DNA of 64,000 nt, taken from the NCBI GenBank assembly GCA_963767735.1, contig CAVYES010000005.1, positions 416,001-480,000 on the forward strand. Direction: 5' to 3'. Shown in pieces: positions 30,843 through 47,483 of the stretch. Below the pieces are notes generated by a model, which worked only from the letters and a program-made list of their open reading frames with translations, searched no databases and had not been told where the DNA came from. This stretch comes from Candidatus Bathyarchaeota archaeon. GTDB taxonomy: Archaea > Thermoproteota > Bathyarchaeia > Bathyarchaeales > Bathycorpusculaceae. Made by a program: the position numbers and the translations under genes. Numbering within the stretch: position 1 is the first letter of the stretch; every line of letters starts with the position of its first letter.

Positions 30843-31009
30843 TCTAATCCAGCTACACCAGGGCTTCGGTTTTCTTGCTGAATCCGCAAGAATTTTCGCT
30901 TAATGCTAAGTTTTCCGTAAGGTTAATAGATAGAGCATTGTAACCTAATGTGGGAAAAGAGCTAAGTCCTAAAGGATAAGCAACCGCTTCAAAAATCAAA
31001 CTTGGTGAA

Positions 31010-31567: not shown

Positions 31568-31591
31568 ACAAATTTTTAAGGTGAAAGAAAC

Positions 31592-32122
31592 TTGGATGAA
31601 ATTGACCGTAAACTTTTAGCTGGCATGGAAAAAGGCATCCCTTTGACAGCAGAGCCCTTCAAAGAAATAGCACTCCAATTAGGAATCACATCGGATGAAG
31701 TGGTTACTCGCTTAAGTAATCTTAAAGAGAAAGGCATGATCAGGCGGTTTGGGGCTTCATTAAAACCTAGCAACATCGGTTTCTTGGCAAATGCCCTTGT
31801 GGCTTGGAAGGTGCCTGAAAACCGCGTTCAAGAAATCGGAGCATCTTTGTCAAAATACCGAGAAATCTCCCATTGCTACGAGCGTAAAGTTGTCAATGGA
31901 AGATGGGATTACAATCTTTACACGGTTATACACGGAAAAGAACGAGAAGTTGTTCAACGTATGGTTAAGGAAATCTCAGGTGAAATCGAAATAAACGAAT
32001 ACAAAATACTGTACAGTACAAGAGACCTAAAAAGAAATGTCAGCACTGGCAACTTCGTTGAGGCTCCAGCAGAAGCTTCTTCGATGTTTTCAGAAAAATT
32101 TCAGGAGATGAATGATCCATGA
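31592..32122 (+). CDS. ahbB: Siroheme decarboxylase beta subunit
   Basis: IRRFGA, ISHCYER, YNLYTVIHG. Confidence 0.85.
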   Translation: MDEIDRKLLAGMEKGIPLTAEPFKEIALQLGITSDEVVTRLSNLKEKGMIRRFGASLKPSNIGFLANALVAWKVPENRVQEIGASLSKYREISHCYERKVVNGRWDYNLYTVIHGKEREVVQRMVKEISGEIEINEYKILYSTRDLKRNVSTGNFVEAPAEASSMFSEKFQEMNDP

Positions 32123-33267
32123 ATAATATTACAAAGCTTTGGTGTGGCATTCCAGGTTCGATGGATCACTTACGATATGGCGCTGAAACTCACCAAAAAC
32201 CAGTTGTTGTTTGGAATACTACACGGCGTTGTAACCTCAATTGTGTGCACTGCTATTCTAAATCCGAGAATAAGATTTACAGCAACGAATTAACAACCGG
32301 TGAAGCCAAAGTTTTTGTGAAAGACCTAGCGGATTTCGGTGTTAAGGTACTGCTGTTTTCCGGTGGAGAACCCCTGCTTAGGGGCGACCTTTTTGAAGTT
32401 GCGCGTTACGCTTCTGATCAAGGTTTAAGAGCAGTGCTATCTACAAACGGCACACTAATTACAGAGGCTGTGGCGCAGCAATTGAAAAATGCCGGGTTCT
32501 CTTACGTAGGAATTAGTTTAGACGGCATAGGTGAAACTAACAACAAGTTTAGAGGCAAAAAAGAAGCCTTCGAGATGGCAGTTAAAGGAATTCGGAACTG
32601 CCTTAAAGCCGAGGTTAAGACGGGTTTACGCTTTACCGTCACAGCATATAATTTCAAGGATCTTCCAGAAATTTTTGAACTCATCGAAGCGGAAGGAATC
32701 CCTCGAGTATGCCTTTATCACTTGGCATACGTTGGACGGGGAACCGAAATTACAAAAGACGACCTAACACATGAACAGACACGAGAGTTCATGGATTACG
32801 TTTTAAAGAAAGCCGAGACTTTCCACAAAAAAGCCTTAAACACTGAAATCTTAACCGTTGATAACCACGCGGATGCCGCCTATCTGTACCTTAAACTGAA
32901 AGAGAAGGACCCGAAAAAAGCTGCAGAAGCGCTCCCGCTTCTAAAATTAAATGGCGGTAACAGCTCGGGCACAGGGATAGCCTGCGTTGATTTTAATGGG
33001 TATGTTCATCCAGATCAATTCTGGCAACATTATTCACTTGGCAATATACGCGACCGTAAATTCAGCCAAATATGGAGTGACGACTCTGAACCGCTGCTTC
33101 GAGCTCTCAGAAACAGAAAAAGTCACCTTCACGGCAAGTGTACAGAATGCCAATTTCTCGACATCTGTAACGGCAACCTCAGAGTTAGAGCGGAAGCAGT
33201 TTATGGAGATGTATGGGCATCTGACCCCGCCTGCTACTTAACTCCGCAAGAAATAAGACCCAATTAG
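32119..33267 (+). CDS. ahbC: Radical SAM/SPASM Fe-coproporphyrin III synthase
   Basis: VVVWNTTRRCNLNCVHCY, YHLAYVGRG, HPDQFW. Confidence 0.88.
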   Translation: MNNITKLWCGIPGSMDHLRYGAETHQKPVVVWNTTRRCNLNCVHCYSKSENKIYSNELTTGEAKVFVKDLADFGVKVLLFSGGEPLLRGDLFEVARYASDQGLRAVLSTNGTLITEAVAQQLKNAGFSYVGISLDGIGETNNKFRGKKEAFEMAVKGIRNCLKAEVKTGLRFTVTAYNFKDLPEIFELIEAEGIPRVCLYHLAYVGRGTEITKDDLTHEQTREFMDYVLKKAETFHKKALNTEILTVDNHADAAYLYLKLKEKDPKKAAEALPLLKLNGGNSSGTGIACVDFNGYVHPDQFWQHYSLGNIRDRKFSQIWSDDSEPLLRALRNRKSHLHGKCTECQFLDICNGNLRVRAEAVYGDVWASDPACYLTPQEIRPN

Positions 33268-33279
33268 AAGGTATACAGC

Positions 33280-34326
33280 GTGAGCGCAACCGACAAATCG
33301 CACTCTTCTGAAATGCATGAGGTTGCGCCGAGAGTTGTGGCTTGGGAGTCTACGCGCGCCTGCAATTTTGCGTGTGTCCACTGCAGGGCTGAAGCGCAAA
33401 AAGAGCCTGATCCTAAACAACTCACAACCCAAGAAGCCCTCAATTTGGTGGATCAAATCGCCGAGTTATGTAAGCCCGTGTTCATTATAAGTGGCGGTGA
33501 TCCTCTTCAGAGGAAAGATATCTTTGAAATTGCCTCATACGCTTCCGGTTTAGGTTTGAGAGTAGTTATGTCTCCAAGCGGCAGCAACTTGACCGCAGAC
33601 ACATTTGAAAAAATGAAGGCTGCTGGCGTAAAGATGATTTCACTTAGCCTTGACGGTTCTAACGCGGAAGTGCATGATAATTTCAGGCAGGTTGCTGGCG
33701 CTTTCAATTTGGCTATGAAGAATATGTCGTTGGCTCGTCAAAGCGGATTTGCTTTTCGCATCAACACAACTGTCACCCAACATAACCTCGATGACCTCTT
33801 CAACATTCAAAAGGTAGCCTCCGAAATGGGAGCGCGTGAATGGGACGTCTTCATGCTGGTGCCGACGGGTCGCGGAAAAGTGAAGATGGAAATAACGCCA
33901 GATCAATACGAAGCGACCATCCAGTCTATCTATAAAGCGAGCCTCACCTCGCCAATTCCAATCAAAATGACCTGCGCACCCCAGTACATGAGAGTTATCG
34001 CCCAGCAGCAAAAAGAAAACCGCCAACCCCACGCAGGCGGCAGAGGATGCATGGCTGGCAACGGGTTTTGTTTTATCTCACACGTCGGAGAAGTCTTCGG
34101 CTGCGGCTTCCTCCCAATCTCAGCCGGCGACATCAGGCAACAAAAATTTAAGCAAATCTATCAGCAATCACCTTTGTTTGTTCAGCTGCGGAATCACGAG
34201 TCGCTTAAAGGAAAATGCGGCATGTGCGAGTATAAGGCGTTGTGCGGCGGTTGCCGTGCAAGGGCATTATCCATACACAAAGACTACTTAGAAGAAGAGC
34301 CCTACTGCATTTTCAAACCCAAATAG
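33280..34326 (+). CDS. ahbD: Radical SAM/SPASM haem b synthase
   Basis: WESTRACNFACVHCRA, LVPTGRG, TCAP, GGCRARA. Confidence 0.88.
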   Translation: MSATDKSHSSEMHEVAPRVVAWESTRACNFACVHCRAEAQKEPDPKQLTTQEALNLVDQIAELCKPVFIISGGDPLQRKDIFEIASYASGLGLRVVMSPSGSNLTADTFEKMKAAGVKMISLSLDGSNAEVHDNFRQVAGAFNLAMKNMSLARQSGFAFRINTTVTQHNLDDLFNIQKVASEMGAREWDVFMLVPTGRGKVKMEITPDQYEATIQSIYKASLTSPIPIKMTCAPQYMRVIAQQQKENRQPHAGGRGCMAGNGFCFISHVGEVFGCGFLPISAGDIRQQKFKQIYQQSPLFVQLRNHESLKGKCGMCEYKALCGGCRARALSIHKDYLEEEPYCIFKPK

Positions 34327-34597
34327 AATTCTGAAATCCTGCAGTAATCAGATCGTCAAGGAAGAAAAAGCTCGAATGTGACGTTAGTAATTTCGCTTCG
34401 TCACGCAGCCAACATAGCCAATTCGAGACGAGATTTGGCTTTGGTTTTCTTGGCTTTCTCTTCTTTGGGCTCTGCAAGTTTCGCAAGGTCCGATGGTACC
34501 ATATTTGGTAAGCAACACATAGTCTTTCACAAAAATAATACTGTGAATTATTCTTAAGTATATGTGGTTGTCATAATGGAGCCACACCTTTGTTCAC

Positions 34598-34610
34598 ATT
34601 AAATTTTAAT
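34598..34610 (+). repeat. 13-bp flanking direct repeat ATTAAATTTTAAT (putative target-site duplication, left)
   Basis: Identical in the same orientation at 43080-43092. Confidence 0.8.
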
Positions 34611-34895
34611 CAAAAAAAAAATAATTGCTTTGTTGATTCCTCATGGAACGATACGAGCATGACCCCAAGAGCCCTCAGGGTTCTGCGCTTCGGAATGACG
34701 AACCATTGCCACTTCGCGCATGTGTTTTTTTTGATTCAGGGCATGCCAGAAAGAACACTGAGCACGTCAAGAAAGGTAGTATATCCTCAGTTCATTAGTA
34801 ATTACTCTCACTTATCATACACTACCTTTGTTTAATTATCATACACTACCTTTGTTCATAACGCCTAACTAAAGAAATTAGGGATATGTGAGGCT
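34611..34895 (+). repeat. Left terminal inverted repeat (285 bp)
   Basis: Reverse complement of 42795-43079; both yield the same shadow peptide in the ORF track. Confidence 0.95.
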
Positions 34896-35649
34896 ATTAA
34901 GGAAGGCTGACTTGTCGTTGAGTTCTGGGCAAGTCTTAAATCTGAATAGCAAAGAAAGTAGGATAGAGGAAATAAAAACGGAATCAGAAAAAAAGCAATC
35001 AGAAAAAGGCAACTGGGAAAAAACAGCTATTATTATTAGCATAATAAGCTTAATCGTTTCAACGAGTTTGACAGCCGTTATAGCATATACCAGTTATCAA
35101 GTAATAGAAAAGGCTGATAATATAGAAAATAACAGCCTTTTGCTACAAATAATGCAAAATGGCTATACCCCAAAAATTTCTGTGAGTAATCCCCAAATTG
35201 TTGTTCTTCAACAAGAAAATAGCTTATTTGATAATTGGACTTCACCCACTGAATGCTATGGGTGGGTAAATGGTTCAATTAATATCATGACTCCTCAAGT
35301 TGGAACAGTATCCATTAGCATAAGTAATTTCTCAATAAGCGACGATTATTCATACCTCTTACCAGAAAAAACAAATTTAACGATTGTTGAGCCAGTTCCT
35401 TCTTATTATCCCCAAGGTATCAATGATGTATATAATGTAGGTGAGGGTTTAACTGGATACAATTTTAGCCTTCCAATAGAAGCTTCATTTTATCCAAACC
35501 CTGAAAAACTACCTGTCAATACTGACTCTATTTTTCCTATCGGATATCTGCTTCTTAAAGCAAATTTTATCCCTCAAGCGACAAACTTCATACCACAAAC
35601 AGAATATTTTTCGGTAAATATCTTTGTTGACGTAAAGAATTATCCTTGA
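34888..35649 (+). CDS. Membrane-anchored extracellular protein (element cargo)
   Basis: N-terminal TM, beta-rich domain with many NxS/T sequons; true start probably near 34978. Confidence 0.7.
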   Translation: MRLLRKADLSLSSGQVLNLNSKESRIEEIKTESEKKQSEKGNWEKTAIIISIISLIVSTSLTAVIAYTSYQVIEKADNIENNSLLLQIMQNGYTPKISVSNPQIVVLQQENSLFDNWTSPTECYGWVNGSINIMTPQVGTVSISISNFSISDDYSYLLPEKTNLTIVEPVPSYYPQGINDVYNVGEGLTGYNFSLPIEASFYPNPEKLPVNTDSIFPIGYLLLKANFIPQATNFIPQTEYFSVNIFVDVKNYP

Positions 35650-35854
35650 GAGATTCCAGAGTGCATTAAACGGTTAGGGCTATTACCGAGTACATTCAAG
35701 GGTTAGCGCGCTAAGAAAGGCTTGCGATTCGAGGATTCCATTCCTTTATTTCTTCTCGCAAATATTTGGCGTGTGCGTATTGTTTTCAAATTCATAAACC
35801 ATAATTCCATGTGACTTTCAAATTGTACTTTGAAGATAGCGAAGAAGGACTGAG

Positions 35855-36133
35855 CTTAAAACGAAACCCGAGTTATATACTTGCGTTAGTTGCGGAAAGA
35901 ATCATTTAAAATTATCAGAGATTGTTTGGATGAAAGAATATGAAGATGGAGACATTGACTTATCAACTGTTAGATGTGTGTCATGCCATGCGCGATTCTT
36001 GCCTACTACTTTGGTAGGTAAACTTCCTGAAGATGTTTTAAAAACTATAGACAAACCCCTCAAGAAATATGGCAAGAGAGTCAACCGTAATTACGACAGA
36101 AGAACCGTTAGACGAGCGCTGAAGAAGTCGTAA
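35855..36133 (+). CDS. Small zinc-finger protein with two CVSC motifs and basic tail
   Basis: Frame open upstream of ATG 35930: YTCVSCGKNH...RCVSCHARF; start codon unclear. Confidence 0.5.
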   Translation, partial: LKTKPELYTCVSCGKNHLKLSEIVWMKEYEDGDIDLSTVRCVSCHARFLPTTLVGKLPEDVLKTIDKPLKKYGKRVNRNYDRRTVRRALKKS

Positions 36134-36144
36134 TAGCGCGCTAT

Positions 36145-37185
36145 TCAGGAAGGGACTAACGTAGCTATCCTCGGATTCCAATCAGGTATTTCCTCTCGCA
36201 AGTATTTAGCAAACAGCAAGGCTTCTTCAGCTATCAGCGTCTCTACCTCTTGTCTTTTCCCTACTTTAATCCTCGGGATTTCTACTTTGCTCCTGAAGAA
36301 AAGGCTTAAACTTTTCAGGAACTCGTCATTTTTCGCTCCGTTCAAATATTGTCTCTTGCCTTTTCTATTATTTGAGAAGGCTTCCTCTCTAAGCACGAAG
36401 TCCTTTTCTTTAAGGATTGATGCGTACTGAATAACGAAGTCGTCTACCAAAAATCTGTACAGCTCCTCAAAGTCACACACTAAGGAGGGCTTACCAAACT
36501 GCAAGCTGTGCAGAAAGCCCAAGTATGGTTCAAGCTTAGCTTTGATTAGCGCGGTATGAACGCGCCAAGATAAAACCGTGTAGGCGAGGTCAAGCAGATT
36601 GTTCGTTTTGTCATACGCTTTAAACGTCGTTCTGTTCTTAGGTCTCATGTACTCAGGGAAAAGCTCGAATATTTGCTGGAAGTATTGAGAAGCGCAATGC
36701 CCTTCGATGTTTGTTAAGGTATGCCTGAGGGTACTCAATGATTTAGCTTCTGCGTTCTTTACCTGCTCGTAACAAAAAGGGTCGAGCCTGTGCAAACCGT
36801 ATTTGCTGAGCAGGCTATCCTGTCCTCTTAGCTTGCCAATAAGAAACGCTTTCGCTATGTCAAACGACTTACCACTGGTAAAGGCTTGATACTGAGACAG
36901 CCGATTAAGGACATGAGAAGAATTGTCCAAGCCTACCAGAACGCCTACCGCGTGACCTCTCGCGGTTTCTACAATAAGGTCTATTCCAAAATAACAGCAA
37001 GTAACCAGCGCTCCGCTGCTGACCGCGTTACCTGAACGGATTTCTATTTCACCTATCGTGTTCATGTTTAGCGGGTATTTTCTTTTGTTGCCTTTGAAAT
37101 CCCGAACGAACAGGCAACCTTCTTCTCTGCCCAAAAAATAGCCCGAGCTATCTAAATTTAATTTCTCAGTTTTCGTTCCTTTCAC
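36145..37185 (-). CDS. cas1: Stand-alone Cas1 integrase (casposase-like)
   Basis: NIEG, NNLLDLAY, LEPYLGFLH, LVCDFEELYR.LVD motifs; GGAGGAGG ribosome-binding site. Confidence 0.93.
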   Translation of the reverse strand: MKGTKTEKLNLDSSGYFLGREEGCLFVRDFKGNKRKYPLNMNTIGEIEIRSGNAVSSGALVTCCYFGIDLIVETARGHAVGVLVGLDNSSHVLNRLSQYQAFTSGKSFDIAKAFLIGKLRGQDSLLSKYGLHRLDPFCYEQVKNAEAKSLSTLRHTLTNIEGHCASQYFQQIFELFPEYMRPKNRTTFKAYDKTNNLLDLAYTVLSWRVHTALIKAKLEPYLGFLHSLQFGKPSLVCDFEELYRFLVDDFVIQYASILKEKDFVLREEAFSNNRKGKRQYLNGAKNDEFLKSLSLFFRSKVEIPRIKVGKRQEVETLIAEEALLFAKYLREEIPDWNPRIATLVPS

Positions 37186-37622
37186 GCTCTATCCTCCTCC
37201 TTAATAGGGTATATAGTAAAGGGGAGCTATTTTAGCTTTAAACGTCAAAAGGGCTTATTTTTAGCCATATTAGCCGTTTTAGGCGCAATATTGTGGCTAT
37301 TTAGGAGCTCGTAGCCTTAAGCTACGAAAAGGCTTTATATAGTATATAAGGAGGGTTGGACTTTTTAAACTATTTTTAAGCTCTAAACGTAAAATGACTT
37401 AAAATTCTTCCCCTATTAGCTATATTCATGTTTAAAATAGGCTTATTAGGATAAATTAAGCCCGATTTGTAGACTTCATGGATTTTGAAAAAAGATTTTT
37501 TAACTTGTTTATTTAAAAACGCGGGTATATACTACGAATTTAAGTATTAACGTATAAAAGCCTAAAATAGAACGAACCGAACGTAGAGGTTATAGATAGC
37601 CCGAATTTAGGAGATTAGGGAT

Positions 37623-38493
37623 ATGTCAAAGACAATAGGGCTTGAACCAATTGAAGAAATTCCTGAGATATTCCCTGTACTCAGGGTTTGTCAAGAACAA
37701 GAAAAGACCCGTATCGGCTTTGATTATGGCGCATCCAGAGAGGGCTAAGAGCACGGAGACTCTCAAGTTCGAAGGTCTTGGGATACTTTACATGACCGAT
37801 TTGACCCACTATGGTCTTATGGAAGAGCTAAAAGACATGCCAGCCGACAAAAGAGAAGCGTTGCATCATCTCGTAATACCTGATTTGGAGAAACTCCGAA
37901 CAAGAGGAAAGAGCGTCAGGGAAGAACTTATGTCTTGCTTTAGGGACTTGACCGAGGAGGGCTTGGGAAGAATGCATACGGGAAAGATAAACGTAAACTT
38001 TGACCCTCCCGTTGTTATGGGCGTTATAGCCTGCACCACTCCAGAAGACATAGGCGACAGGAGAAGCATACTCAGGAACGTAACATTCCTGTCCAGATTT
38101 ATTCCCTTTACTTACGATTACTCAGACCAAATGAAGATAGACATACTTAATTTCGTTGAAAAAGAGGATGAATTGACCGAAAGAAAAGACCAAATAATCG
38201 GAAAGGTGGCAAGAGTCGAATTGCCAGAGAGTTTGGCGGGCGAATTGACAACCTATGCAATTTATCTCGCACATAGAATACAGAAATTCGCTTCTACAAA
38301 ATCTGTAGACGGGAAAGACAGCCTGTTTGGAGTTAGGGCGAAAGAGAACCTTATGACGCTGTTAAAGAGCATAGCGTTGTACAACGGAAACAGAACGGTG
38401 GAGAAGGAAGACTTGAAAGAACTAATGCACCTCTACAAGTACATGAACTTCAATTTTAGGGAGATGGATGACAGAATATTCGGAGGTGAGTGA
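37623..38493 (+). CDS. AAA+ (MCM-like) ATPase with divergent Walker motifs; probable frameshift near 5' end
   Basis: AHPERAKS, HLVIPD, IACTT, LSRF Arg finger, GVR sensor 2, TVEKEDL. Confidence 0.7.
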
Positions 38494-38893
38494 GATTGGA
38501 CACAATTCCTGGGCGCGAATTTATGGGGATATTCATGCGAACAAGTATTACATAGACATGAAAGGCGCATACACTCGTGAGGAAATTAATAGAAGGGTCG
38601 AAGCTGCAGAAAAAGCTGCGCTATACCTCGGTCGTCGAGGAGACCTCGACCCTCAAACTGTCCGACAAAGGATAGCCCGTCTGGCGAAATTAAGAAAGGC
38701 TGACATCGGAAGCCGCGCCATCTCGGAAGCGCGAAGGCATCCTGACGGAATGGTAAACCTGACGCTGCATTACGGGCGTGATAAAGCCTTCGGCATGAGA
38801 ATTGACCGCATGCAACGCCTTAGGAGATTGGAAAAGACGCGAAGAGCGGAAAGGATGGAAAGGATGCGGAAAGCAAGGTTCGACAGAGGTTGA
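38468..38893 (+). CDS. Arg-rich basic hypothetical protein
   Basis: Overlaps both neighbours; strongly basic C-terminus. Confidence 0.65.
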   Translation: MTEYSEVSEIGHNSWARIYGDIHANKYYIDMKGAYTREEINRRVEAAEKAALYLGRRGDLDPQTVRQRIARLAKLRKADIGSRAISEARRHPDGMVNLTLHYGRDKAFGMRIDRMQRLRRLEKTRRAERMERMRKARFDRG

Positions 38894-39198
38894 AAGAAAT
38901 GGTTGACGTAAGCACGCTCTTAATTTCTATGGTAACGGGATTATTCGCTGGAATAGGAACGACTGTCGGAACTTACTTGGCAAACAAGCATCTCGTCGAG
39001 AACATGAAGAAATTAGAGAAGGCTGCAGTCGAAGCCATAAGAGCACCGTTGTTCCAAGCAGAACGCAACGCGGAACCCTTATACCCTAAAGGGTATTCCC
39101 AAAGACGCATCAGGAATACCCGTAGTAAATTCCCTTATCACGTTACTCGCCCAGAAAAGCGCGGTCATCCCCGTAAGGTTATTGAACACACTCGATAG
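38890..39198 (+). CDS. Small protein with N-terminal Gly-rich TM helix
   Basis: LLISMVTGLFAGIGTTVGTYLA. Confidence 0.65.
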   Translation: MKEMVDVSTLLISMVTGLFAGIGTTVGTYLANKHLVENMKKLEKAAVEAIRAPLFQAERNAEPLYPKGYSQRRIRNTRSKFPYHVTRPEKRGHPRKVIEHTR

Positions 39199-39224
39199 AG
39201 TACGCTTTAGGTTGGTGTCAAGTT

Positions 39225-39383
39225 TTGGACTTATTCGGAAGTGCTATAGCGATAGCGCTTATCCTTGTATTTTTCATCATGGCGCTTGGGTATATCGGCT
39301 TTGATAGAGTAGGGCAAGCCCTTCGCTCGCTCTGGGAAGCCTTTAGTGCAATATGGGTTATTCTTTTTGGAACATCCCCGTAA
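39225..39383 (+). CDS. 52-aa membrane protein (not in ORF track)
   Basis: GGTG site + TTG; MDLFGSAIAIALILVFFIMALGYIGFDRVGQALRSLWEAFSAIWVILFGTSP. Confidence 0.65.
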   Translation: MDLFGSAIAIALILVFFIMALGYIGFDRVGQALRSLWEAFSAIWVILFGTSP

Positions 39384-39399
39384 AGGCAGATGCGAGATT

Positions 39400-39534
39400 T
39401 TGCTTAAAAGGTTGGAACATACTCGGAAGAGTATAGCCGAATGGGGAAAACGAAATGAAATAGAAAGCCTGATTGTAGTCGTCGTACCCGTCGCGGTTTT
39501 TATCGTGGTAATTTTCTTGGCGAAATGGTTGTGA
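39400..39534 (+). CDS. 44-aa membrane protein with C-terminal TM helix
   Basis: MLKRLEHTRKSIAEWGKRNEIESLIVVVVPVAVFIVVIFLAKWL. Confidence 0.6.
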   Translation: MLKRLEHTRKSIAEWGKRNEIESLIVVVVPVAVFIVVIFLAKWL

Positions 39535-39540
39535 GTCCTT

Positions 39541-39684
39541 ATGGACATATCCAGCATATTCGGTACATTACTCGGGGCAGGCATTCTTGTTGCTTTCATA
39601 ATCTACGTTATGGTGAAGATAGGAATTTTGGGCAGGTTCGTTCGCGCTGTTAGCTCGCTCTTGCATTTAATATTCGGGGATTAA
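39541..39684 (+). CDS. 47-aa membrane protein (not in ORF track)
   Basis: MDISSIFGTLLGAGILVAFIIYVMVKIGILGRFVRAVSSLLHLIFGD. Confidence 0.65.
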   Translation: MDISSIFGTLLGAGILVAFIIYVMVKIGILGRFVRAVSSLLHLIFGD

Positions 39685-39686
39685 CA

Positions 39687-39959
39687 ATGCCACAGAAATA
39701 CTGGATAAAAGAAAAACTTGGATGTAATGAGCGGTGGGATTGTTCTCGCTGCGCAAAAATGCTGTCTTGTCTGGATAAGGCTATGGGAAAGCCAGATTGC
39801 GAAGAGCCCGAAGCAGAAGTAGAAACGAAGCCTAAAGAAACAACCCCAAAGAATAAACCCAGAAAGGAACCTGACAGCGATTTTAAAAAGTCACGAGGTT
39901 GCAAACGGGTTATTAAATGCAATTGCTGTAGGGAATTTTTCGTTAACTGCTTTCCTTAA
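39687..39959 (+). CDS. Small Cys-rich, charged protein
   Basis: C..CSRC..C cluster; starts 2 bp after the previous stop. Confidence 0.55.
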   Translation: MPQKYWIKEKLGCNERWDCSRCAKMLSCLDKAMGKPDCEEPEAEVETKPKETTPKNKPRKEPDSDFKKSRGCKRVIKCNCCREFFVNCFP

Positions 39960-40130
39960 TGAATGAGGAGGTGATAAGGATGGCAAAAGCACCAAAAAGA
40001 AACCCGAAAAGAAACATGTAAGTGAACCAAGCGAAAGCTCCTCAAAGGCTTAGGGTTTTCCATTCGGGAATACCCAAAGAACTTTTGGGAATACCCTGTA
40101 GGGTAAAACCCCAAGGCTCAGAATGAAGGC

Positions 40131-40213
40131 GCTCCTCACCTAAGCGCGTACTCAGAGTAGCCATTGCTGCCAGCTATTCGGTACTGCGCAGTCGCGCTTG
40201 GAGCGTGAGGAGC
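40131..40213. other. Long imperfect stem-loop
   Basis: Nested pairings GCTCCTCAC/GTGAGGAGC, AAGCGCG/CGCGCTT, GAGTAGC/GCTATTC. Confidence 0.65.
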
Positions 40214-40377
40214 CGAGGTTTCGCTTAGGTTTTTCCACATCCTCGTTGAAAGATGCGGCTCAAGGTTTTCTCACCTCGTCTTTCAAGCCTTCCTGAAATG
40301 CCCCTTACTGAGAAATCTGTGTCCCTCACTACATATAACACTAAGAAGTCTTAAATCTGAAATAATACTATGACTAA

Positions 40378-40728
40378 ATGGTGAATGTTATGAGTAGAAT
40401 ACCAGAATTTGAAATAAAGGATAGCGAAAACTTCAAAATCATTTACTCTACAGGTGTATTTGGCGGTCTTGCGCCAAATGACGGAAGAATGGTTTTGTAT
40501 ATAGATTTGCTGAAAACAAAACCAGTTAGAGGAGAACCTGGAAAGGAAGAACTTGACAAAATTGTTAGGGAAAGGGAAGTTGAAATTCACCTGTCACCAG
40601 CAACTTGGAAAAGTATTGCAAAATGGATGACCGCGCATGTAGAGCAACTTGAAAAAGTTTATGGAAAAATACCTGAAGAACCAAAAAGTATCATTCCACA
40701 AACACAATCTGGAAATCCTATCGTTTAG
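40378..40728 (+). CDS. DUF3467-like protein (cargo)
   Basis: IYSTGVFGG...EIHLSPATWKSIAKWM pattern; TATA-like TTAAAT at 40351. Confidence 0.65.
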   Translation: MVNVMSRIPEFEIKDSENFKIIYSTGVFGGLAPNDGRMVLYIDLLKTKPVRGEPGKEELDKIVREREVEIHLSPATWKSIAKWMTAHVEQLEKVYGKIPEEPKSIIPQTQSGNPIV

Positions 40729-40738
40729 ATGGTCTTTT

Positions 40739-41299
40739 TTGAGTTTCAAAGTTTATATTTCTTCTGACTGCAACGACACGTTCTTTGTTAACAATGTACT
40801 TGGAGTTAACAATGTACTTGGAGCGATTCAAGAGAAAAGTGAAGAAATTCGCAACGCTATAGGCATAGAAATCCATCCAATCTATCCACCAAGACAAGCC
40901 ACAACTGGGATGACTGTTGAAGATAAGATAGCCCAAATAAGAGATTCGGCTTTAGTTATTATGAACATTACTCCAAGAATCATTGCAACTGAGTATGTTG
41001 TTAATTCTGGTGTTCTTATAGAATATGGGATTGTATTAGGTTTAGGCATAGCTGATAATCTCTGCATCCTATGTAATCAAGAATTTGAAAGAGCCCGACT
41101 GTCGCCGATTTTTCATGGTCATGACATTTAACAATTCATACAGACTACTGAAGGAACAGAATTAAAAAACATCATAAAAAATATTCTAAGTAATCACATC
41201 GCCAAGATTGTCCAAAGAAGCAGCCAACTTGCTCAAAGTGATAGGATTAAGCAAGATTTCATAGAAGAGCAAATAAGGTCAGCGAGCAACGCCACATAA
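40739..41299 (+). pseudogene. Nucleoside 2-deoxyribosyltransferase/TIR-like protein interrupted by an in-frame TAA at 41129
   Basis: KVYISS..IRDSALVIMNIT..NSGVLIEYGI; same frame stays open 56 codons past the stop. Confidence 0.6.
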
Positions 41300-41516
41300 C
41301 GGGAGTCATAAAAAGTCAGATTGTTGGGATTCTTGGATTCCTGTCTTTCCGTTCGTTTATCGAATACTTCGCAAACAACAGAGCCTCTTCACTAAGGCTT
41401 CACCATACCATTTTTGTTCTGCTTACGCAGAACCTCTTTTCGGGTCTACCCTTCTCCCGCCCTTACTGCACTACACGCGCTAAAGGGTACGCCTTCCTGA
41501 ACAACGCTTTTAGCGT

Positions 41517-42062
41517 TTACTGAAAAACCAGAGGTAGTATTTTTGCGCCTTGTGGTATTACAAGTGGTTTTACGTCATTGATGATGTTAGCTGTCTTAGC
41601 CTCTATAGGAGTTAAAGTCTTTGCTTCGAGAAACATCTCTTTGACTTTATCCGAATCAAGTTTCGAGTTTGCGACAATAATGTCAGTTATTAGTTTTTGG
41701 TCTCGTTCAATGCTCAGTAAGCCCTCTTTGATTTGTTTTTCATCAAATCTCGCTTGCTGTAATATGTTCAAAGCTACGCCATGAAATAGAAATGATGAGT
41801 TTGGAACAGCATATCTTTCGGTACCAGCTAATAATACAATATTGGCGATTGAGTCAACTATCCCGATATTGAACGTTATAGTTTTTATTGGAAGCGACTT
41901 GATGTAGTTGAATAATGTAATTCCACTGTTTGTCGCTCCTCCAGGTGAAGACAGCATTAGACAAACCTCTTTTTCACCTATGTTTACTTGTTCTGCCAAG
42001 ACACTCATTAGAGTTTGAGAAGTCTTACCATCGATTCCTGCGTGGAAATTAATAAACAACAT
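41517..42062 (-). CDS. ClpP-like serine protease (cargo)
   Basis: LSSPGG, VDSIA, FLFHG, LTPIEA. Confidence 0.85.
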   Translation of the reverse strand: MLFINFHAGIDGKTSQTLMSVLAEQVNIGEKEVCLMLSSPGGATNSGITLFNYIKSLPIKTITFNIGIVDSIANIVLLAGTERYAVPNSSFLFHGVALNILQQARFDEKQIKEGLLSIERDQKLITDIIVANSKLDSDKVKEMFLEAKTLTPIEAKTANIINDVKPLVIPQGAKILPLVFQ

Positions 42063-42190
42063 TGGATTAGCTCCTTATTCTACTTTGAATTGCCTTTGCA
42101 TATAAGTTTATGCACTACCCGATACCGTAAAGTTACCCATAACAAACCTTAAGCCAACTTCTTCTAATACCGTCTTTCGAGGGATTAAGG

Positions 42191-42700
42191 ATGCCCAATG
42201 AAGAAATCAACAAAACAAAACAGAAAATTATAGAATGGTTAAAGGAAGAGGGATTCTCGGCAGAAGAAAAACAAGACCCAAATGCTTACTTTAATATTCA
42301 AGCAACAAAAGGCAGAATAAATGTGAACATTATCCAAAACCCACCTTTCAATGATAGTATCTTCATTGGTGGAAACATCGCCGTTGCTCCAGAACAACAA
42401 GCGCTTCTGAAATCAAGGAGTCGAGATAAAAGGGAAGATTTCATTTGGGATTTACAAATGAGCCTCGCAGCGAACAATGAATTAGGCGATTTTGCGCTAA
42501 AACCCAATCCACCTGACGATATACAAACCATTTTTGTTTCCTCTCGGAGAATCTACTATGATGAACTGACTAAAGGGAAACTCTTTACTTCAATCAATAT
42601 TGTCATGAAAAACATCATATTGACTATTTGGAAACTGCAAAAATTTGTTGGAATGCATATGCCCAAAACGCCTGCAACAAAGCAAGATTATTCTACGTAA
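42191..42700 (+). CDS. DUF2299-like hypothetical protein (cargo)
   Basis: IIEWLKEEGF, FIWDLQ, IYYDELTK pattern. Confidence 0.65.
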   Translation: MPNEEINKTKQKIIEWLKEEGFSAEEKQDPNAYFNIQATKGRINVNIIQNPPFNDSIFIGGNIAVAPEQQALLKSRSRDKREDFIWDLQMSLAANNELGDFALKPNPPDDIQTIFVSSRRIYYDELTKGKLFTSINIVMKNIILTIWKLQKFVGMHMPKTPATKQDYST

Positions 42701-42794
42701 AGTAATGCCCTTTCTTTCTTAATTGATAGAATACCTGAAGGTCTTCTTCTTTCTTTAGGTGGTACACATTCTTCAGGTTGCTGAATGCCTGAAC

Positions 42795-43079
42795 AGCCTC
42801 ACATATCCCTAATTTCTTTAGTTAGGCGTTATGAACAAAGGTAGTGTATGATAATTAAACAAAGGTAGTGTATGATAAGTGAGAGTAATTACTAATGAAC
42901 TGAGGATATACTACCTTTCTTGACGTGCTCAGTGTTCTTTCTGGCATGCCCTGAATCAAAAAAAACACATGCGCGAAGTGGCAATGGTTCGTCATTCCGA
43001 AGCGCAGAACCCTGAGGGCTCTTGGGGTCATGCTCGTATCGTTCCATGAGGAATCAACAAAGCAATTATTTTTTTTTTG
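42795..43079 (-). repeat. Right terminal inverted repeat (285 bp)
   Basis: Reverse complement of 34611-34895. Confidence 0.95.
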
Positions 43080-43092
43080 ATTAAATTTTAAT
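43080..43092 (+). repeat. 13-bp flanking direct repeat ATTAAATTTTAAT (right)
   Basis: Identical to 34598-34610. Confidence 0.8.
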
Positions 43093-43459
43093 CCAACCAA
43101 CCAACGAAAAAGTAAGGAAAAGTTAGACCTTTTTGAAAAGGTTGCAGGTGTTACTCAGTTCGGCATAGGCATATCACATAAGGTTAAGGTATAGTATGTG
43201 TAGTATCGGAATCGAGTAAACACTCAAAACTATGGAAAAAATAAGAAAAAATAAAGGAAAAAGAGATAAGGGTTCTGGTAACTTCGTTGGATAGTTTTTC
43301 GGTGTAAACTGTCTTGGGATATTTTTCTCGGTGTTAAGTTTCATGGGACACTTGTTTATGTGTTAATTTATATATATATATATAGATTATTAAGAGAAGC
43401 TATATTAGCTCCCCAATGGATACTCTCTGCTTCCGAACATAAGTAGAGGTGAAAAAAGA

Positions 43460-43648
43460 ATGCTTTCAAGAGATTGCGATGGCTGCTCAATGCTTAAGGC
43501 ATGCAGTGTACGATACAAAAAAACTTTAAAAGGTGACAAAGTCTACTGCCCAGACGGAACAGCACACCTGATTGACTGTGACAGCATAAAGCAAAGCACC
43601 GATATAATCTGTGTCTTTGAAGCGAGTCAATTAATCGAAAAAACTTAA
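43460..43648 (+). CDS. Small Cys-rich hypothetical protein
   Basis: GAGGTGA site; CDGC..C..YCPDG..H. Confidence 0.65.
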   Translation: MLSRDCDGCSMLKACSVRYKKTLKGDKVYCPDGTAHLIDCDSIKQSTDIICVFEASQLIEKT

Positions 43649-43833
43649 AGATTAGCGACTAAACAGAAAAACTGAAAAAAAATCAAAAAACCATAATTGC
43701 CCCTTAAGCTGTTTTTGCAGCGTTTTGTATTAGTGTTTTCCATTTGTTTTCGCCTTCGATTGTTATTTCACATGCTCACTCGGAGTTTTGCCGTCTAAGG
43801 CTTCTGTGCGGTTTTTTAGTGATTTAAAACCTT

Positions 43834-44058
43834 TCAGCGGAAAACCGTGCAGTCATTTGCTTCTCTCATCGTTAACCCGTGTTTGAGGGCAAAATTAGTT
43901 AAGAGGGTTTTTTCGCTGTTTCCGACAAGCCATTTAACGTGTAGTTCCCAATCTTGCGATTTTTCAGCCTGTACTGTATACACTATAGGTGTGCCTTTCA
44001 CCGTTTCAAAGATAACCAACAACTCATCAAGTATTGAAAGAGCCTCTTCTCTATTCAT
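43834..44058 (-). CDS. Small hypothetical protein (MxREEA family)
   Basis: Similar to 45362-45613. Confidence 0.65.
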   Translation of the reverse strand: MNREEALSILDELLVIFETVKGTPIVYTVQAEKSQDWELHVKWLVGNSEKTLLTNFALKHGLTMREANDCTVFR

Positions 44059-44184
44059 AATCCGCAATATATGCGGAACTAATTTAAAGATTTTTGGAAT
44101 GCGGTTAAAAAAAATTACTTCTCAGCGTGGAATTGCAATTTTCTATCTTGTATCACACTCAAGCGCGCGCAACTATTAAATTGC

Positions 44185-44355
44185 TCATTCTTTTGCCTCA
44201 ATGATTAATCGCCAATCTGTTATCGTAAGCTCTAGGTGTTGTCCATCATTCCAGCCTAATTCGTTGACTGCCTCTTCTGGAATGACTATTACATGTTTGT
44301 ATTGACGTTTGTCCTTGTCCTTGTAATCAAGTTGCTTCTGGAGTTTAGATTTCAT
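44185..44355 (-). CDS. AbrB/MazE-like 56-aa protein
   Basis: KHVIVIPEEAVNELGWNDGQHLEL; GAGG site. Confidence 0.7.
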   Translation of the reverse strand: MKSKLQKQLDYKDKDKRQYKHVIVIPEEAVNELGWNDGQHLELTITDWRLIIEAKE

Positions 44356-44596
44356 TTTTGGGATTCCTCAAATTTGTAAATCAAGAGGAAACAAATACGT
44401 GATAGGGTACATTCTTTTTCTTTAACCAACAATGTTTACTTCCAGCTTCAATTGTTAAACATGAAAAGCTATTATGAAGGTTTGTGGGCACAAAAAGAGG
44501 CAACAAACGTTCAGAATCACAAATAGACGAATTTTTACATCAAAAATAAAGTAAGTCTTAAATCTGCGCGTCGCGCAGTTGAAAATTTACCATTTA

Positions 44597-44950
44597 TTAT
44601 GTCGATTTGACAAACGAGCTTTTTTCCTTAACTGAGTGTAGGTATACCTGTGGAATTTTATAGCTGATGGTGTTTGCGTAATTTTTTTGACTGGTACACA
44701 CCTCAACGCTAATTTCTTTATCATCTGAATCTTCCGAAGGATTACTAACAAAGAGTATGTCCATGTTTCCTATACGAAAGTGTAAGTGAGCTCCTTTAGC
44801 TTTCTCTAATAATAAAATTACTGTATTCATTTGTTGCTGGCTCAAGCCTAATGCTATCCGAATATCATCTAGAAAAGTAATTATATTCTTTGCAGATGCG
44901 GTAACCAAAGGAGATTTTTCCTTCAACATTCTAATCATCCGTGAGGTCAC
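44597..44950 (-). CDS. Hypothetical protein
   Basis: 117-aa ORF. Confidence 0.5.
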   Translation of the reverse strand: MTSRMIRMLKEKSPLVTASAKNIITFLDDIRIALGLSQQQMNTVILLLEKAKGAHLHFRIGNMDILFVSNPSEDSDDKEISVEVCTSQKNYANTISYKIPQVYLHSVKEKSSFVKST

Positions 44951-45233
44951 GTTTCACAGTGTTTTCAATTTAAGCTTTATGAAGTTGAGATTAATTACGG
45001 AATCGCATCCTTTGAATTTATTTCCACAGTAATTCTAATAGGTGTCTTATTGAATTCTCCTTGCAAATCCACAGTGTACCTTGTCCCATTTCGTCTTTTT
45101 GTCTCTTGTGGTTATTAAGCGCGGCGCGCTGAAAACATATATCCAAATTGGATGCGTTCTATTGTTGCGACAAGATGTTACACCAAATACTAATATCGTC
45201 ATGAAGCAAGACTTAAGGTGAGGCGTCATCCGA

Positions 45234-45359
45234 GTGGCTGAATGCCCTTACTGCCATAATGAAGTTTCTAAAACTCAGGCTAAATTACAGAACAGCTTCT
45301 TCACAATCGAAACCTTCACATGTGATAGATGCGGAAGAAGATTCACTGTAACAAAATAA
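45234..45359 (+). CDS. 41-aa zinc-finger protein
   Basis: MAECPYC...FTCDRCGRRF after GGTGAGG. Confidence 0.65.
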   Translation: MAECPYCHNEVSKTQAKLQNSFFTIETFTCDRCGRRFTVTK

Positions 45360-45361
45360 CT

Positions 45362-45613
45362 CTATTCTGTTTTTTTGGGTTTGTAGACTATTACTTCGCC
45401 TTTCTCTTCTCGCACAGCTAAGTTATGTGATTTAGCGATATGGACAATCTGTTCTTTGACTGAGCCATCTGATAACATTGTAATACATATTTGATAGCCT
45501 TCTGAGGTTGGGTCACCTATTTTCGATAACTTTAGGTTAAAGGAGTTTGACCCCATGTGTTCACCTAAATTCAGGATTTCTTTATAGATAGCGACTGCTT
45601 CCTCTCTCTTCAC
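45362..45613 (-). CDS. Small hypothetical protein (MxREEA family)
   Basis: MKREEAVAIYKEIL...IAKSHNLAVREE. Confidence 0.65.
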   Translation of the reverse strand: MKREEAVAIYKEILNLGEHMGSNSFNLKLSKIGDPTSEGYQICITMLSDGSVKEQIVHIAKSHNLAVREEKGEVIVYKPKKTE

Positions 45614-45710
45614 GTGCTTCCCCAAGTTCGCTACCTGCGTACAAACTATTAAACTTGTGTAGCTGTAAACGTCCAGCAACAGAGCGGCTGCTATATTCAA
45701 ATCAAGCGCG

Positions 45711-46812
45711 CTGGCTTGTCCCTTAATTAAGTAAACGTTTATTTTTGAGTTGGGGCCTCGTTTCAAATGAGTTACGTCCAAGCTTAGGAGGTGACCCCAA
45801 GCGGGACAAGATGAACACGAGACCCTAGAAACCCTCTTCAGAAACGTAGACTTAAGTTTTGCTAAAGCAGCCTTACTCGACTGCTTCCATTCCGATGGTC
45901 CAGGAAGACCCCCCAGAAACCCAATGGGACTTTTCAGAACCTTCATCGTTATGCGCATGAAGGGCGTTCGCAGCCTAAGAGAAATGACCAGACTACTCGA
46001 CGCAGACCCAAGACTTAGACGATTGTGCCTCATCAAACCAGCCGAAAAAGGTTACCCACGAAGCGTTCTCAGCAGGTTCATCCGCAAAGTTGGAGAAATC
46101 CGCCTCATTAACATAATAGACGAGAAAGTTGTTAAGCTCTCGAAACACAGCAGTGCAAGAGACGTTGATTCCATTTTTGATGCTTCCTTTATAGATGCGT
46201 GGAGTACACGTGATCCACTGGACAACCAGACCGGCTATTCAGACAAGGAAGCCAGAGTCGGACGCGCAGGCAGATCATTCGGACTCGGCTACAAGCTGCA
46301 CTTAGCTATCGATTCTGCGACTATGCTTCCTTTAGCCTGCATTTTTGCTTCGGCTAATCAGAACGAGCAGAAACACTCATTGAACCTGCTGGAGAAGACC
46401 AAGCTGATTCTCAAGCAGTCTGAGGCTAAATTGAGAAGTGTGATAGCTGACAGCCAGTACAGCGACGGCAAACTCAGAGACGCTGTCGACGCTGCGGTGA
46501 TACCGTATCGTTCAAACCAGAAACGGGACGTTAAGGGCTTGCTGAGAGTGGACAAGAAGTTTCGAGCCTATGGACCGGAAGAACAGAAGAAGGAGTACCA
46601 CAAAAGACCTCATGTAGAGGCAGTCTACAGCTTCCTAAAGACACAGTACAGCCTAACCGTCAATAAAGTAAGAGGCTTAGGCAACGTAGCTTCATATGCG
46701 CTCTTTAGCATTCTATGCTTAGTTCTGAACCGAGAGGCGGCAGAAAACTTCGGAAGATACGATAAAGCAGTCTCACCAACATACTTCAACACGTAATATC
46801 GGGACAAGGCAG
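45711..46812 (+). mobile_element. Insertion sequence (IS5/IS1182-like DDE)
   Basis: IRs CTGGCTTGTCCC / GGGACAAGGCAG, flanked on both sides by CGCG. Confidence 0.85.
45924..46796 (+). CDS. DDE transposase; 5' region appears disrupted
   Basis: FDAS, GYKLH, ADSQY, R..VE..S.LK; frame open upstream (GPGRPP) but ATG 45767 meets a TAG and a frame break. Confidence 0.85.
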   Translation: MGLFRTFIVMRMKGVRSLREMTRLLDADPRLRRLCLIKPAEKGYPRSVLSRFIRKVGEIRLINIIDEKVVKLSKHSSARDVDSIFDASFIDAWSTRDPLDNQTGYSDKEARVGRAGRSFGLGYKLHLAIDSATMLPLACIFASANQNEQKHSLNLLEKTKLILKQSEAKLRSVIADSQYSDGKLRDAVDAAVIPYRSNQKRDVKGLLRVDKKFRAYGPEEQKKEYHKRPHVEAVYSFLKTQYSLTVNKVRGLGNVASYALFSILCLVLNREAAENFGRYDKAVSPTYFNT

Positions 46813-47189
46813 CGCGGGGTAACTTTTCTTATATTTTTTACCCCTAATGCCATTATTTTAATTAATTTACGAGGGGTAACTTTTACTGAACTTCTTACTC
46901 CTCATACCAATACCTAACTACAATATACCTTAGTGACCTATCAAAAGTCTTTACCTAACGTTATTTTTTTTTATTAAAATTTAATCCCACATGCATTTCA
47001 GCAATTTTACTTCGAACACCAAGCCATATGTTGCGAGCGCGCGAATATATATTTTTCAATTTTTGGCTGTGATTATGCACATACACCGTTTTCACATTCT
47101 TCATAAAGTCTTCTTCTCATCCTTAACACAAATCTTAACAAAGAAAAGATGTGAGAGGTTGAAAACGATTAAGACGGCTACGACTTAAG

Positions 47190-47483
47190 CTAAGAGTGGG
47201 GTGCCGTGAGCATTTTGGTGGCTTCTGCCTCTGTCCAAGCCTTCATCGTCATCGTGCGGATGTTTCCCATGCTGCCTGTGCACAAAAGAATTGCCGCCAT
47301 ATCTTCATCTTTGGGAATTTCAACAAAAAGCACAAAATCATATTTTCCCATGGTTGTGAAGAACTTCATTTTTCCGCCAGCTTTTTCAATCATTTCTCTG
47401 GCTGCTTTGACTCTTTCCGGAGATTCTGTCACGTTTTTTATACCCTGTTCGGTCCAGTTTCCAAGAATAATAAAATTCGACAA
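47190..47483 (-). CDS. GYD-domain protein
   Basis: WTEQGIKN, MGKYD, GNIRT.T. Confidence 0.85.
   Translation of the reverse strand: MSNFIILGNWTEQGIKNVTESPERVKAAREMIEKAGGKMKFFTTMGKYDFVLFVEIPKDEDMAAILLCTGSMGNIRTMTMKAWTEAEATKMLTAPHS

Follow-up and report, generated by a model that had tools for sequence, protein, structure and literature searches.

An element of a Bathyarchaeia genome with Cas1 as its sole recombinase is probably a non-self-synthesizing casposon of a widespread clade

Casposons are the proposed ancestors of the adaptation machinery of CRISPR (short palindromic repeats that are clustered and regularly interspaced). They were defined by Krupovic et al. 2014 (PMC4046053) through the joint presence of Cas1 and a family B DNA polymerase (PolB), and families 1-4, as described in papers of 2016 and 2019 and in a 2023 review, all possess PolB (PMC4779613, PMC6563490, PMC9939771). 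Salgado et al. 2022 (Front Microbiol, PMC9755687) subsequently introduced 'family 5 casposases' from six hot-spring metagenome sequences bearing archaeal, Thermoproteota/Crenarchaeota labels; as described there, their catalytic residues are conserved, a helix-turn-helix (HTH) domain is lacking, PolB occurs in one member only, the accompanying small hypothetical genes are highly variable, and the members were 'suggested to function as non-self-replicative transposons'. Terminal inverted repeats (TIRs) are reported on five contigs of the 2022 set, not all of them from family 5 (PMC9755687). Here we analyse a Cas1 element (hereafter element 1) at positions 34598..43092 of a 64-kb stretch (the window, meaning that whole stretch) of contig C5 from a Candidatus Bathyarchaeota archaeon, whose genome comprises 3.04 Mb in 10 contigs. 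We regard element 1 as probably a non-self-synthesizing casposon with its Cas1 homologue as the only recombinase, belonging to a large Bathyarchaeia-centred clade that apparently corresponds to family 5.

The anatomy of element 1 is directly supported by a base-by-base comparison of its ends, which yields 8,469 bp between two duplicated 13-mers and reproduces the size, the 285-bp TIRs and the 13-bp direct repeats put forward in the original prediction, a reading of the letters and open reading frames (ORFs) alone. Its defining features are as follows.

34598..34610, unstranded: left copy of the target-site duplication (TSD), 13 bp long, ATTAAATTTTAAT, identical to 43080-43092, central base included
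34611..34895, plus strand: left TIR of 285 bp, starting CAAAAAAAAAATAATTGC, complementary to the right TIR at 285/285 positions
34769..34856, unstranded: three subterminal copies of a 21-nt motif within the TIR, from repeat families and base comparison
36145..37185, minus strand: Cas1 homologue (putative casposase) of 346 amino acids (aa), from PF01867, TIGR00287, alignment and trees
42795..43079, minus strand: right TIR of 285 bp, with a contig of run X3 reading across into the flank
43080..43092, unstranded: right copy of the 13-bp duplication, matching the left copy

Pairing of 34611-34895 with 42795-43079 is perfect over all 285 bp, the first mismatch falling at position 286, and element 1 therefore appears intact and suited to biochemistry. 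A repeat finder reported longer inverted arms (34598-34902 and 42788-43092; 305 nt, 99% complementary) because the flanking 13-mer is itself a near-palindrome: ATTAAATTTTAAT is palindromic save for its central base, and since this base is T on the plus strand at both borders, the two copies represent direct repeats rather than an extension of the TIR. Within the TIR, the 21-nt motif is found inverted at 34769-34789 and direct at 34812-34832 and 34836-34856, with the set mirrored at 42834-42921; these copies are candidate protein-binding sites. Four public runs of a single study, from which the assembly itself may derive, yielded short contigs (depth 2-4x) that match at 99% identity or better and span the right TIR/13-mer/flank junction and both TIR/interior junctions, i.e. 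three of the four junctions.

The Cas1 homologue matches PF01867 (E 2e-46) and TIGR00287 (E 2e-44, 151.8 bits), and since the latter alignment covers residues 10-332 of 346, there is no room for an extra C-terminal domain. When 15 family members are aligned, three residues (E161, H226, D238) show no variation and a fourth, E241, hardly any, which agrees with the expected positions of the Cas1 catalytic tetrad and with the E/H/acidic motifs of the original prediction. Profile scans of the 11 ORFs of element 1 against Pfam and NCBIfam identified Cas1 as its sole recombinase-like gene, with zero matches to PolB, Cas2, Cas4, DDE transposases or tyrosine/serine recombinases, and no CRISPR-like tandem array was found within 30000-50000 of the window; the gene absences noted originally are thus upheld. 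Compared with a casposon as defined in 2014, element 1 possesses the Cas1 tetrad, TIRs (285/285) and a probable TSD (13/13), but lacks the element-encoded family B polymerase that makes such elements self-synthesizing.

Element 1 represents one member of an extensive family. Its Cas1 returned 1,798 database matches, the best 120 of these 1,798 being at least 54% identical and ~343 aa long. From a survey of one genome per species we collected 78 loci of the same Cas1 clade, 75 of which are titled Bathyarchaeia or Bathyarchaeota and the other three Acidobacteriota, Levybacteria and 'uncultured archaeon'; copy numbers of three or four occur in several genomes. Self-comparison revealed inverted repeats around cas1 in many loci and allowed 26 elements of 3.9-17.5 kb to be delimited, including element 1 and a second element of the same genome, and many of these are no longer than 3.9-4.6 kb, with TIRs of 100-140 bp that pair perfectly or almost so. 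Clustering of 255 ORFs showed Cas1 to be the only gene common to all 26; five clusters of small proteins that belong to no known family make up two alternative modules, each cluster being represented in 7-11 elements, and the small conserved proteins (c1-c5) have no PHROGs or PADLOC match. The TIR ends across the family are simple-repeat-like (CTTTCTCTCTCT, CCCAAACCCAAACCC, CCAACCAACC, CCCACACACAC, TCCTTCCTTCC). A distinct compact class of Cas1 element, as originally envisaged, is therefore recovered as a widespread group of 78 loci rather than as a lone deletion product; it is not a new class, having been proposed in 2022 (PMC9755687).

The absence of PolB extends to this family almost throughout. 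Tblastn searches of all 78 loci (1.19 Mb), using as queries the three PolBs of the genome itself (PF00136 matches on contigs C2 and C6, none on C5) and one casposon protein-primed PolB (pPolB), found PolB adjoining cas1 in a single locus (L073) and in none of the 26 delimited elements. The only other positive locus, L087, carries a host-like PolB at its edge, outside the element. Profile scans likewise detected no PolB among 60 family-element proteins, including all five of at least 500 aa. For element 1 itself, the PF03175 profile gave no match, but control sequences went unmatched too. The refuting condition named originally, that all relatives carry PolB, is accordingly contradicted, and a large clade of Cas1 transposons seems to do without the polymerase that, together with Cas1, defines casposons as self-synthesizing. 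A precedent for mobility of this kind comes from polymerase-less mini-casposons, described as translocating in vivo when Cas1 is supplied (Gehlert et al. 2023, PMC10359463).

A shared target was identified from the flanking repeats. The second Cas1 element of the genome (C5 ~32264-37571, corresponding to L007 8266-13572; ~5.3 kb) has only Cas1 in common with element 1 (50% identity) and possesses different TIRs of 20 bp (CCCCAAACCC..., CCCCAAACCCAAACCCAAAC), and it is flanked by the same duplicated 13-mer (GTTAAAATTTAAT). The genome contains eight exact copies of ATTAAATTTTAAT or its complement against ~0.5 expected from composition. In 22 of the 26 delimited elements, exact direct repeats lie at both borders, with lengths of 12 bp (one element), 13 bp (nine), 14 bp (two) or 15 bp (ten), and most of them are variants of G-ATTAAA-N-TTTAAT-C. 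The other four comprise two elements truncated at contig ends, one whose repeats differ at a single position, and L065, the only one of the 26 with a tyrosine integrase, in which no such repeat is found. Across the 78 loci, the 13-mer ATTAAANTTTAAT has 38 exact copies compared to 0 for a reversed control, and 59 compared to 8 when up to one mismatch is allowed; the preceding base is G in 30/38 and the following base C in 31/38. Where copies occur on both sides of cas1, the nearest two are identical, centre base included, in 10 of 13 loci. Counts over 61 genus genomes give 261 occurrences of the 13-mer compared to 55 of the reversed control; single genomes have between 0 and 31 copies, which are clustered. 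The association of Cas1, TIRs and duplicated repeats is thus observed throughout the family, and a single palindromic target of 13-15 bp is conserved across Cas1 proteins that are only ~45-65% identical.

The placement of this Cas1 clade was examined in a tree of 44 rows, comprising 17 family members, five thaumarchaeal, two unclassified and 20 presumed CRISPR-type sequences of the same phylum (LG+C20+F+G4). In this tree the family forms a single clade (100/100) whose stem measures 1.2 substitutions per site; it groups with the five thaumarchaeal family-1 casposases and one further Cas1 (L128), apart from the 20 CRISPR-type rows, with ultrafast bootstrap (UFBoot) support of 97 and a Shimodaira-Hasegawa-like approximate likelihood ratio test (SH-aLRT) value of 92; quick trees gave the same grouping with support of 89 and 91. 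Among the thaumarchaeal rows, one adjoins a PF03175 pPolB (L123), one EF-2 and one an OLD nuclease. Family 1, the nearest Cas1 group in this tree, resembles the element 1 family in that its Cas1 has no HTH, its elements carry TIRs and a 13-bp sequence-specific TSD (reported for Ca. Nitrosopumilus koreensis by Wang et al. 2021, PMC8464041), and tandem insertion in one target is described (PMC8464041, PMC6563490). Unlike the element 1 family, with its AT-rich palindrome and lack of PolB, family-1 elements possess a gene for a protein-primed PolB and use the ends of genes (e.g. EF-2) as insertion sites, and stems of ~1.2 substitutions per site lie between the Cas1 proteins of the two groups. Family 2 (Aciduliprofundum boonei, Methanosarcina mazei) shares Cas1-only integration, TIRs, TSDs of 14-15 bp and a site preference; its casposase, however, has a C-terminal HTH, and its elements, as described in PMC4779613, carry an RNA-primed PolB, an HNH nuclease and two HTH proteins, none of which is found in element 1. 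As an aside, L128 (G308:C5, 9004-11639), from a genome of family f17, encodes a Cas1 of 407 aa that overlaps a 475-aa ORF without a family match, with no PolB-sized ORF nearby.

Correspondence with family 5, most members of which share more than 50% Cas1 identity, is suggested by a comparison made by eye, in which supplement sequences of PMC9755687 share long motifs with the consensus of our 15-member alignment; Cas1_1219 of that paper is labelled Levybacterales, as is family locus L067. Both groups are further alike in mostly lacking PolB, in having no C-terminal HTH, and in combining TIRs with a solo Cas1 that retains its catalytic residues (PMC9755687). From this motif comparison the element 1 clade appears to be the proposed family 5. 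The main text of the family 5 paper contains 'TSD' 0 times and 'target site' once, in its reference list, and the portions available to us make no mention of a palindromic target, arrays, an AAA+ gene or a Bathyarchaeia host (PMC9755687), all of which are features of the element 1 family. Family 5 thereby gains a host (Bathyarchaeia), a family size, a target, simple-repeat end sequences and a candidate accessory ATPase, to which the present analysis adds arrays with 13-mers between units and a tree tying the clade to family-1 casposases. In the published literature, subscription journals not covered, we found nothing on Bathyarchaeia Cas1 transposons, the 13-mer target, its arrays or the AAA+ core.

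Encoded divergently from cas1 are two genes of potential relevance to the transposition of element 1.

37642..38493, plus strand: AAA+ ATPase of 283 aa with an MCM-like fold, AAA+ core only, from alignment and predicted structure
38468..38893, plus strand: Arg/Lys-rich protein of 141 aa following the ATPase gene, with homologues in the same position in L025 and L031

The ATPase has no Pfam (including MCM at E 0.1), NCBIfam, PHROG or PADLOC match, and none of its 48 homologues is annotated. An alignment of 29 sequences nevertheless reveals a Walker A-like motif (A30-x4-[G/A]-K36-S-T), a Walker B motif (D81-x-E83) and an invariant R152 in an SRF motif, which may resemble the arginine finger of MCM. 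An AlphaFold model built from this alignment (mean predicted local distance difference test, pLDDT, 84.5; predicted template modelling score, pTM, 0.85) has MCM subunits as its best Foldseek matches (E 3e-8, template modelling score 0.53-0.60). In a search independent of Foldseek across 48,161 chains, the top nine matches are all MCM entries (Z 14.0-15.6 over 218-249 residues, root-mean-square deviation, rmsd, 3.8-4.6), the best at Z 15.6 with an rmsd of 3.8 over 247 residues, followed by RavA (13.4), BchI (12.5), BrxL, ComM, Cch of SCCmec (10.7) and the SaPI Rep (9.5); TnsC aligns over its core only (Z 7.7-8.1). Since it aligns with only the AAA+ part of MCMs (chain ranges ~290 to 650), the modelled protein is best described as an MCM-like AAA+ fold consisting of the core alone. 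In contrast to MCM helicases it lacks the N-terminal domain with its oligonucleotide/oligosaccharide-binding (OB) fold and zinc DNA-binding part, as well as any sequence-level MCM signature; and although Cch, SaPI Rep and TnsC are mobile-element AAA+ proteins that can be structurally aligned with it, it has no N-terminal OB or DNA-binding domain. By tblastn the gene is found in 16 of the 78 related loci plus the window, syntenic with cas1 in L031, L027, L028 and others, where a homologue of the basic 141-aa protein follows; other family members carry different small-gene modules. Further loci combining cas1 with this ATPase do therefore exist, and of the suggestion that an MCM-like ATPase replaces PolB the fold is retained, while the distribution of the gene identifies a recurrent accessory gene rather than a family-wide substitute for PolB.

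For the catalytic steps, as for the role of the ATPase, we infer a mechanism by analogy with characterised casposases. Cas1 multimers would bind the 3' ends of the TIRs, recognise the palindrome G-ATTAAA-N-TTTAAT-C and attack its two strands 13 bp apart, after which host gap repair would duplicate the 13-mer, so that insertion would recreate the target at both sides of the element. Because the target would be regenerated at each insertion, elements of the system would pile up side by side with single 13-mers between them. Having no polymerase of its own, element 1 would be copied passively with the chromosome, and after excision host polymerases would do the synthesis. The likeliest helpers would be the MCM-like ATPase and the basic 141-aa protein, which may serve either as a helicase or loader for replicating the excised form, or as a regulator of target choice or assembly like TnsC, MuB or IstB.

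Several observations weigh against this account and have to be considered together with three other explanations of the locus. No clean pre-insertion site for element 1 was found among the genomes searched: it lies within a 13.2-kb stretch (window 34324-47587) that is replaced in the two closest genomes (88-89% flank identity) by ~73 bp without a 13-mer, from which we take it that element 1 entered a pre-existing island, at a 13-mer bordering the end of another element. At the locus of the second element, relatives keep the right flank with only a half-site, GATTAAAA, and no empty-site 13-mer, and its own left flank is rearranged; the proposed check for an empty site with one 13-mer was hence negative for both elements among the relatives searched. 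No contig of the four runs (2-4x) joins the flanks of element 1, a result uninformative on excision either way; no other copy occurs in 60 genus genomes, where only short repeats matched; and exact searches of metagenome contigs with the left flank plus 13-mer, and with a stretch of the TIR, gave 0 matches each. Recent activity is suggested, as first proposed, by the perfect 285-bp TIRs and by a presence specific to this lineage, the closest relatives lacking the element, although neither a single-13-mer site nor an excised form accompanies them. The ATPase of the window also carries Ala where the family consensus has Gly before the Walker A lysine, and may possess a weakened activity. With regard to the polymerase, element 1 could be a deletion derivative of a classical PolB-encoding casposon, with a recent loss of the polymerase having left it non-autonomous or dead. 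L073 (10001-12965), which encodes a 634-aa PolB (PF00136, E 2.5e-30) 26 bp downstream of cas1, is nested in the 13-row subclade of element 1 in a 64-row family tree, a position compatible with PolB loss in the element 1 lineage, and one PolB-bearing contig is described among the six family-5 members (PMC9755687). We nevertheless regard such an origin as improbable, given that L073 sits deep among PolB-less loci, for which one gain is far more parsimonious than dozens of losses, that it shows neither a TIR pair nor a 13-mer, and that the many 3.9-4.6-kb elements with well-preserved TIRs imply mobility without PolB, which adjoins cas1 in this one locus alone.

Site-specific recombination at a shared core would likewise leave a palindromic direct repeat, and the 13-mers might accordingly be core att sites at which a circle integrates by attP x attB, with Cas1 a passenger or acting in another role. 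Many unrelated elements share identical repeats that, like att cores, are direct and sequence-specific, and arrays of units split by one conserved site resemble integron cassettes. We give this explanation little credence: element 1 and most delimited elements lack a tyrosine/serine recombinase or DDE transposase, the one element with a tyrosine integrase is among the four without an exact flanking repeat, TIRs of up to ~300 bp directly abut the repeats, Cas1 is the sole universal gene, and lengths of 13-15 bp fit the duplications reported for casposases, 13 bp in family 1 (PMC8464041) and 15 bp in A. boonei (PMC9939771). Very improbable, in our view, is an origin of Cas1 as a CRISPR adaptation gene that strayed or is degenerating, with inverted repeats that are an unrelated artefact of assembly or duplication. 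The protein does score as a generic Cas1 by TIGR00287, CRISPR Cas1 proteins (7cr6, E 8e-17) outrank the M. mazei casposase (6opm, E 1e-10) among solved structures in a sequence search, and the left flank/TIR junction (34569-34607) is unbridged in the short contigs, such that the concern over misassembly is answered for three junctions and stands for the left outer one. The tree, moreover, is without casposases of families 2-4, the published family-5 sequences and Cas1-solo group 1; its CRISPR rows were labelled by Pfam score rather than by neighbourhood, save that of the genome's own locus on contig C10; long branches meet; and the 2022 tree sets family 5 near I-A Cas1 in an 'outgroup', not with the casposases (PMC9755687). 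With these reservations, the proposed check by Cas1 phylogeny at most suggests a casposase affinity, outside the presumed CRISPR-type rows. Against a CRISPR origin, the adjacent cas2 or cas4 and nearby array of an adaptation module are not found at element 1, and the actual CRISPR-Cas locus of the genome, on C10, is complete-looking and separate, with its own Cas1 27% identical to that of element 1; the pattern of Cas1, TIRs and duplication recurs in more than 20 independent assemblies; and the Cas1 clade is monophyletic on its long stem. Cas1-solo group 1 of Methanomicrobiales, described as inactivated and set apart from casposons by Krupovic et al. 2014 (PMC4046053), has incomplete catalytic residues and is vertically inherited; the element 1 family differs in its conserved tetrad, its patchy and multi-copy distribution, and its TIRs and TSDs. 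On balance, a non-self-synthesizing casposon accounts best for element 1. The C10 locus itself (C10:223-5061, L009) consists of an array with a 37-nt repeat, GTTTCAATCCTTGTTTTGTTGGATTAGCTTTTTGGAC, beside a cas cluster whose 317-aa Cas1 is unrelated to the transposon clade.

Closer examination of the sequences outside the duplicated 13-mers usually revealed the ends of other such elements, and runs of 13-mers spaced 0.05-4.4 kb apart were identified in L087, L102, L098, L026 and L070. One genome has five sites within 3.6 kb and four within 3 kb (L154, G071:C31:7500-14000; L155, G071:C15:11500-17500), where the units between 13-mers span 391-1597 bp and are C-rich at the start and G-rich at the end, without the two ends matching. 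For casposons, repeated insertion in tandem at a regenerated target is described (PMC4779613, PMC6563490), and by analogy this probably explains part of the arrays; units whose ends are mismatched could have arisen by recombination between neighbours, by decay of elements, or by capture of DNA lacking proper TIRs. The arrangement bears on the possible origin of CRISPR repeats from casposon target sites. CRISPR adaptation (Cas1-Cas2 at the leader-proximal repeat) similarly combines a Cas1 integrase, a partly palindromic repeat duplicated per insertion and arrays with identical repeats. It differs in that the element 1 system has no Cas2, leader, crRNA processing or effector, and in that its inserts of 0.4-17 kb have their own ends, compared to CRISPR spacers of 30-40 bp, with a repeat of 13-15 bp compared to 24-40 bp. 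Tentatively, and with more doubt than confidence, one might view the system as a living intermediate between casposon target duplication and the CRISPR array, in which a polymerase-less Cas1 recognises one palindromic repeat and regenerates it per insertion, giving arrays of heterogeneous 0.4-17 kb units separated by identical 13-15-bp repeats, many with minimal mismatched ends. If true, a repeat-insert-repeat layout could arise from Cas1 alone, before Cas2, leaders and effectors, and Cas1 may also capture DNA other than dedicated transposons. The short, defined target of a Cas1-only integrase may in addition be of practical interest for site-specific DNA insertion.

The other annotated ORFs of element 1 would represent cargo or genes of no assigned family, with the ClpP-like protease, the DUF2299 and DUF3467-like proteins and other genes as likely cargo.

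34888..35649, plus strand: ORF of 253 aa without a family match in profile, PHROGs and PADLOC scans; cargo or unknown
38890..39198, plus strand: ORF of 102 aa with a hydrophobic N-terminus and no family in the profile scan
40378..40728, plus strand: protein of 116 aa with a weak DUF3467 match (E 4e-5, below cut-off)
40649..41131, plus strand: ORF of 160 aa with a weak nucleoside 2-deoxyribosyltransferase-like match, below cut-off
41517..42062, minus strand: ClpP-like serine protease of 181 aa, cargo (PF00574, E 3.6e-16)
42191..42700, plus strand: DUF2299 protein of 169 aa, cargo (E 9.5e-24)

Matches of the ClpP-like protein to phage head-maturation proteases were considered as a sign of a virus and rejected, since element 1 has no capsid or terminase gene and measures only 8.5 kb. 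Viral contigs contained no relative of its Cas1, and an Rfam scan of 33000-48500 gave nothing beyond one sub-threshold snoRNA match. Cargo of other delimited elements includes AIPR, Schlafen/AlbA_2, a CAP12/Pycsar TIR-domain protein, an N6/N4 methylase and an HNH protein, and the PolB/cas1 locus of L073 lies beside GmrSD and type I restriction genes.

The 13.2-kb island is composite, comprising element 1, the solo end of another element, a DDE transposase of insertion sequence type (45924-46796) and a third 13-mer.

43093..43221, plus strand: solo end of another element of the same system (CCAACCAACCAACG...), recurring in other genomes of the genus
46973..46985, unstranded: third copy of the 13-mer, with central A, inside the island, from an exact-copy search

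A search of the window gave no partner for the solo CCAACCAACC end. Short sequences repeated in the genus lie at 43373-43631 (including ORF 43460-43648, a Cys-rich protein of 62 aa with CxxC) and at 43710-43812; a query holding both matched 57 of 61 genus genomes at ~70-88% identity, and the former could be a multi-copy small gene or a miniature inverted-repeat transposable element. A further integrated element is suggested to the right of the island (region 49815-51632), where tRNA-Gln(CTG) at 49815-49888 is overlapped by the minus-strand ORF of a tyrosine integrase of 599 aa (49833-51632).

Elsewhere in the genome, the second Cas1 element sits between two inverted paralogues of a B12-binding radical SAM protein, inside a 158-bp inverted repeat pair. 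Among other family members, L080 (1-17506) is a whole contig of 17.5 kb whose ends form a 163-bp inverted repeat (99%) and which encodes a family Cas1, AIPR, an HNH protein and a methylase; it could be a complete element assembled alone, or an extrachromosomal linear form. Also identified, on contig C4 of the genome (C4:130527-139354, L008 5528-14355), was a 133-nt inverted repeat pair (77%) with arms 8.6 kb apart, enclosing two 13-mers (C4:132991 and 135776) together with 115 bp that match part of the TIR of element 1 at 75% identity, which may represent an older, Cas1-less relative of element 1.

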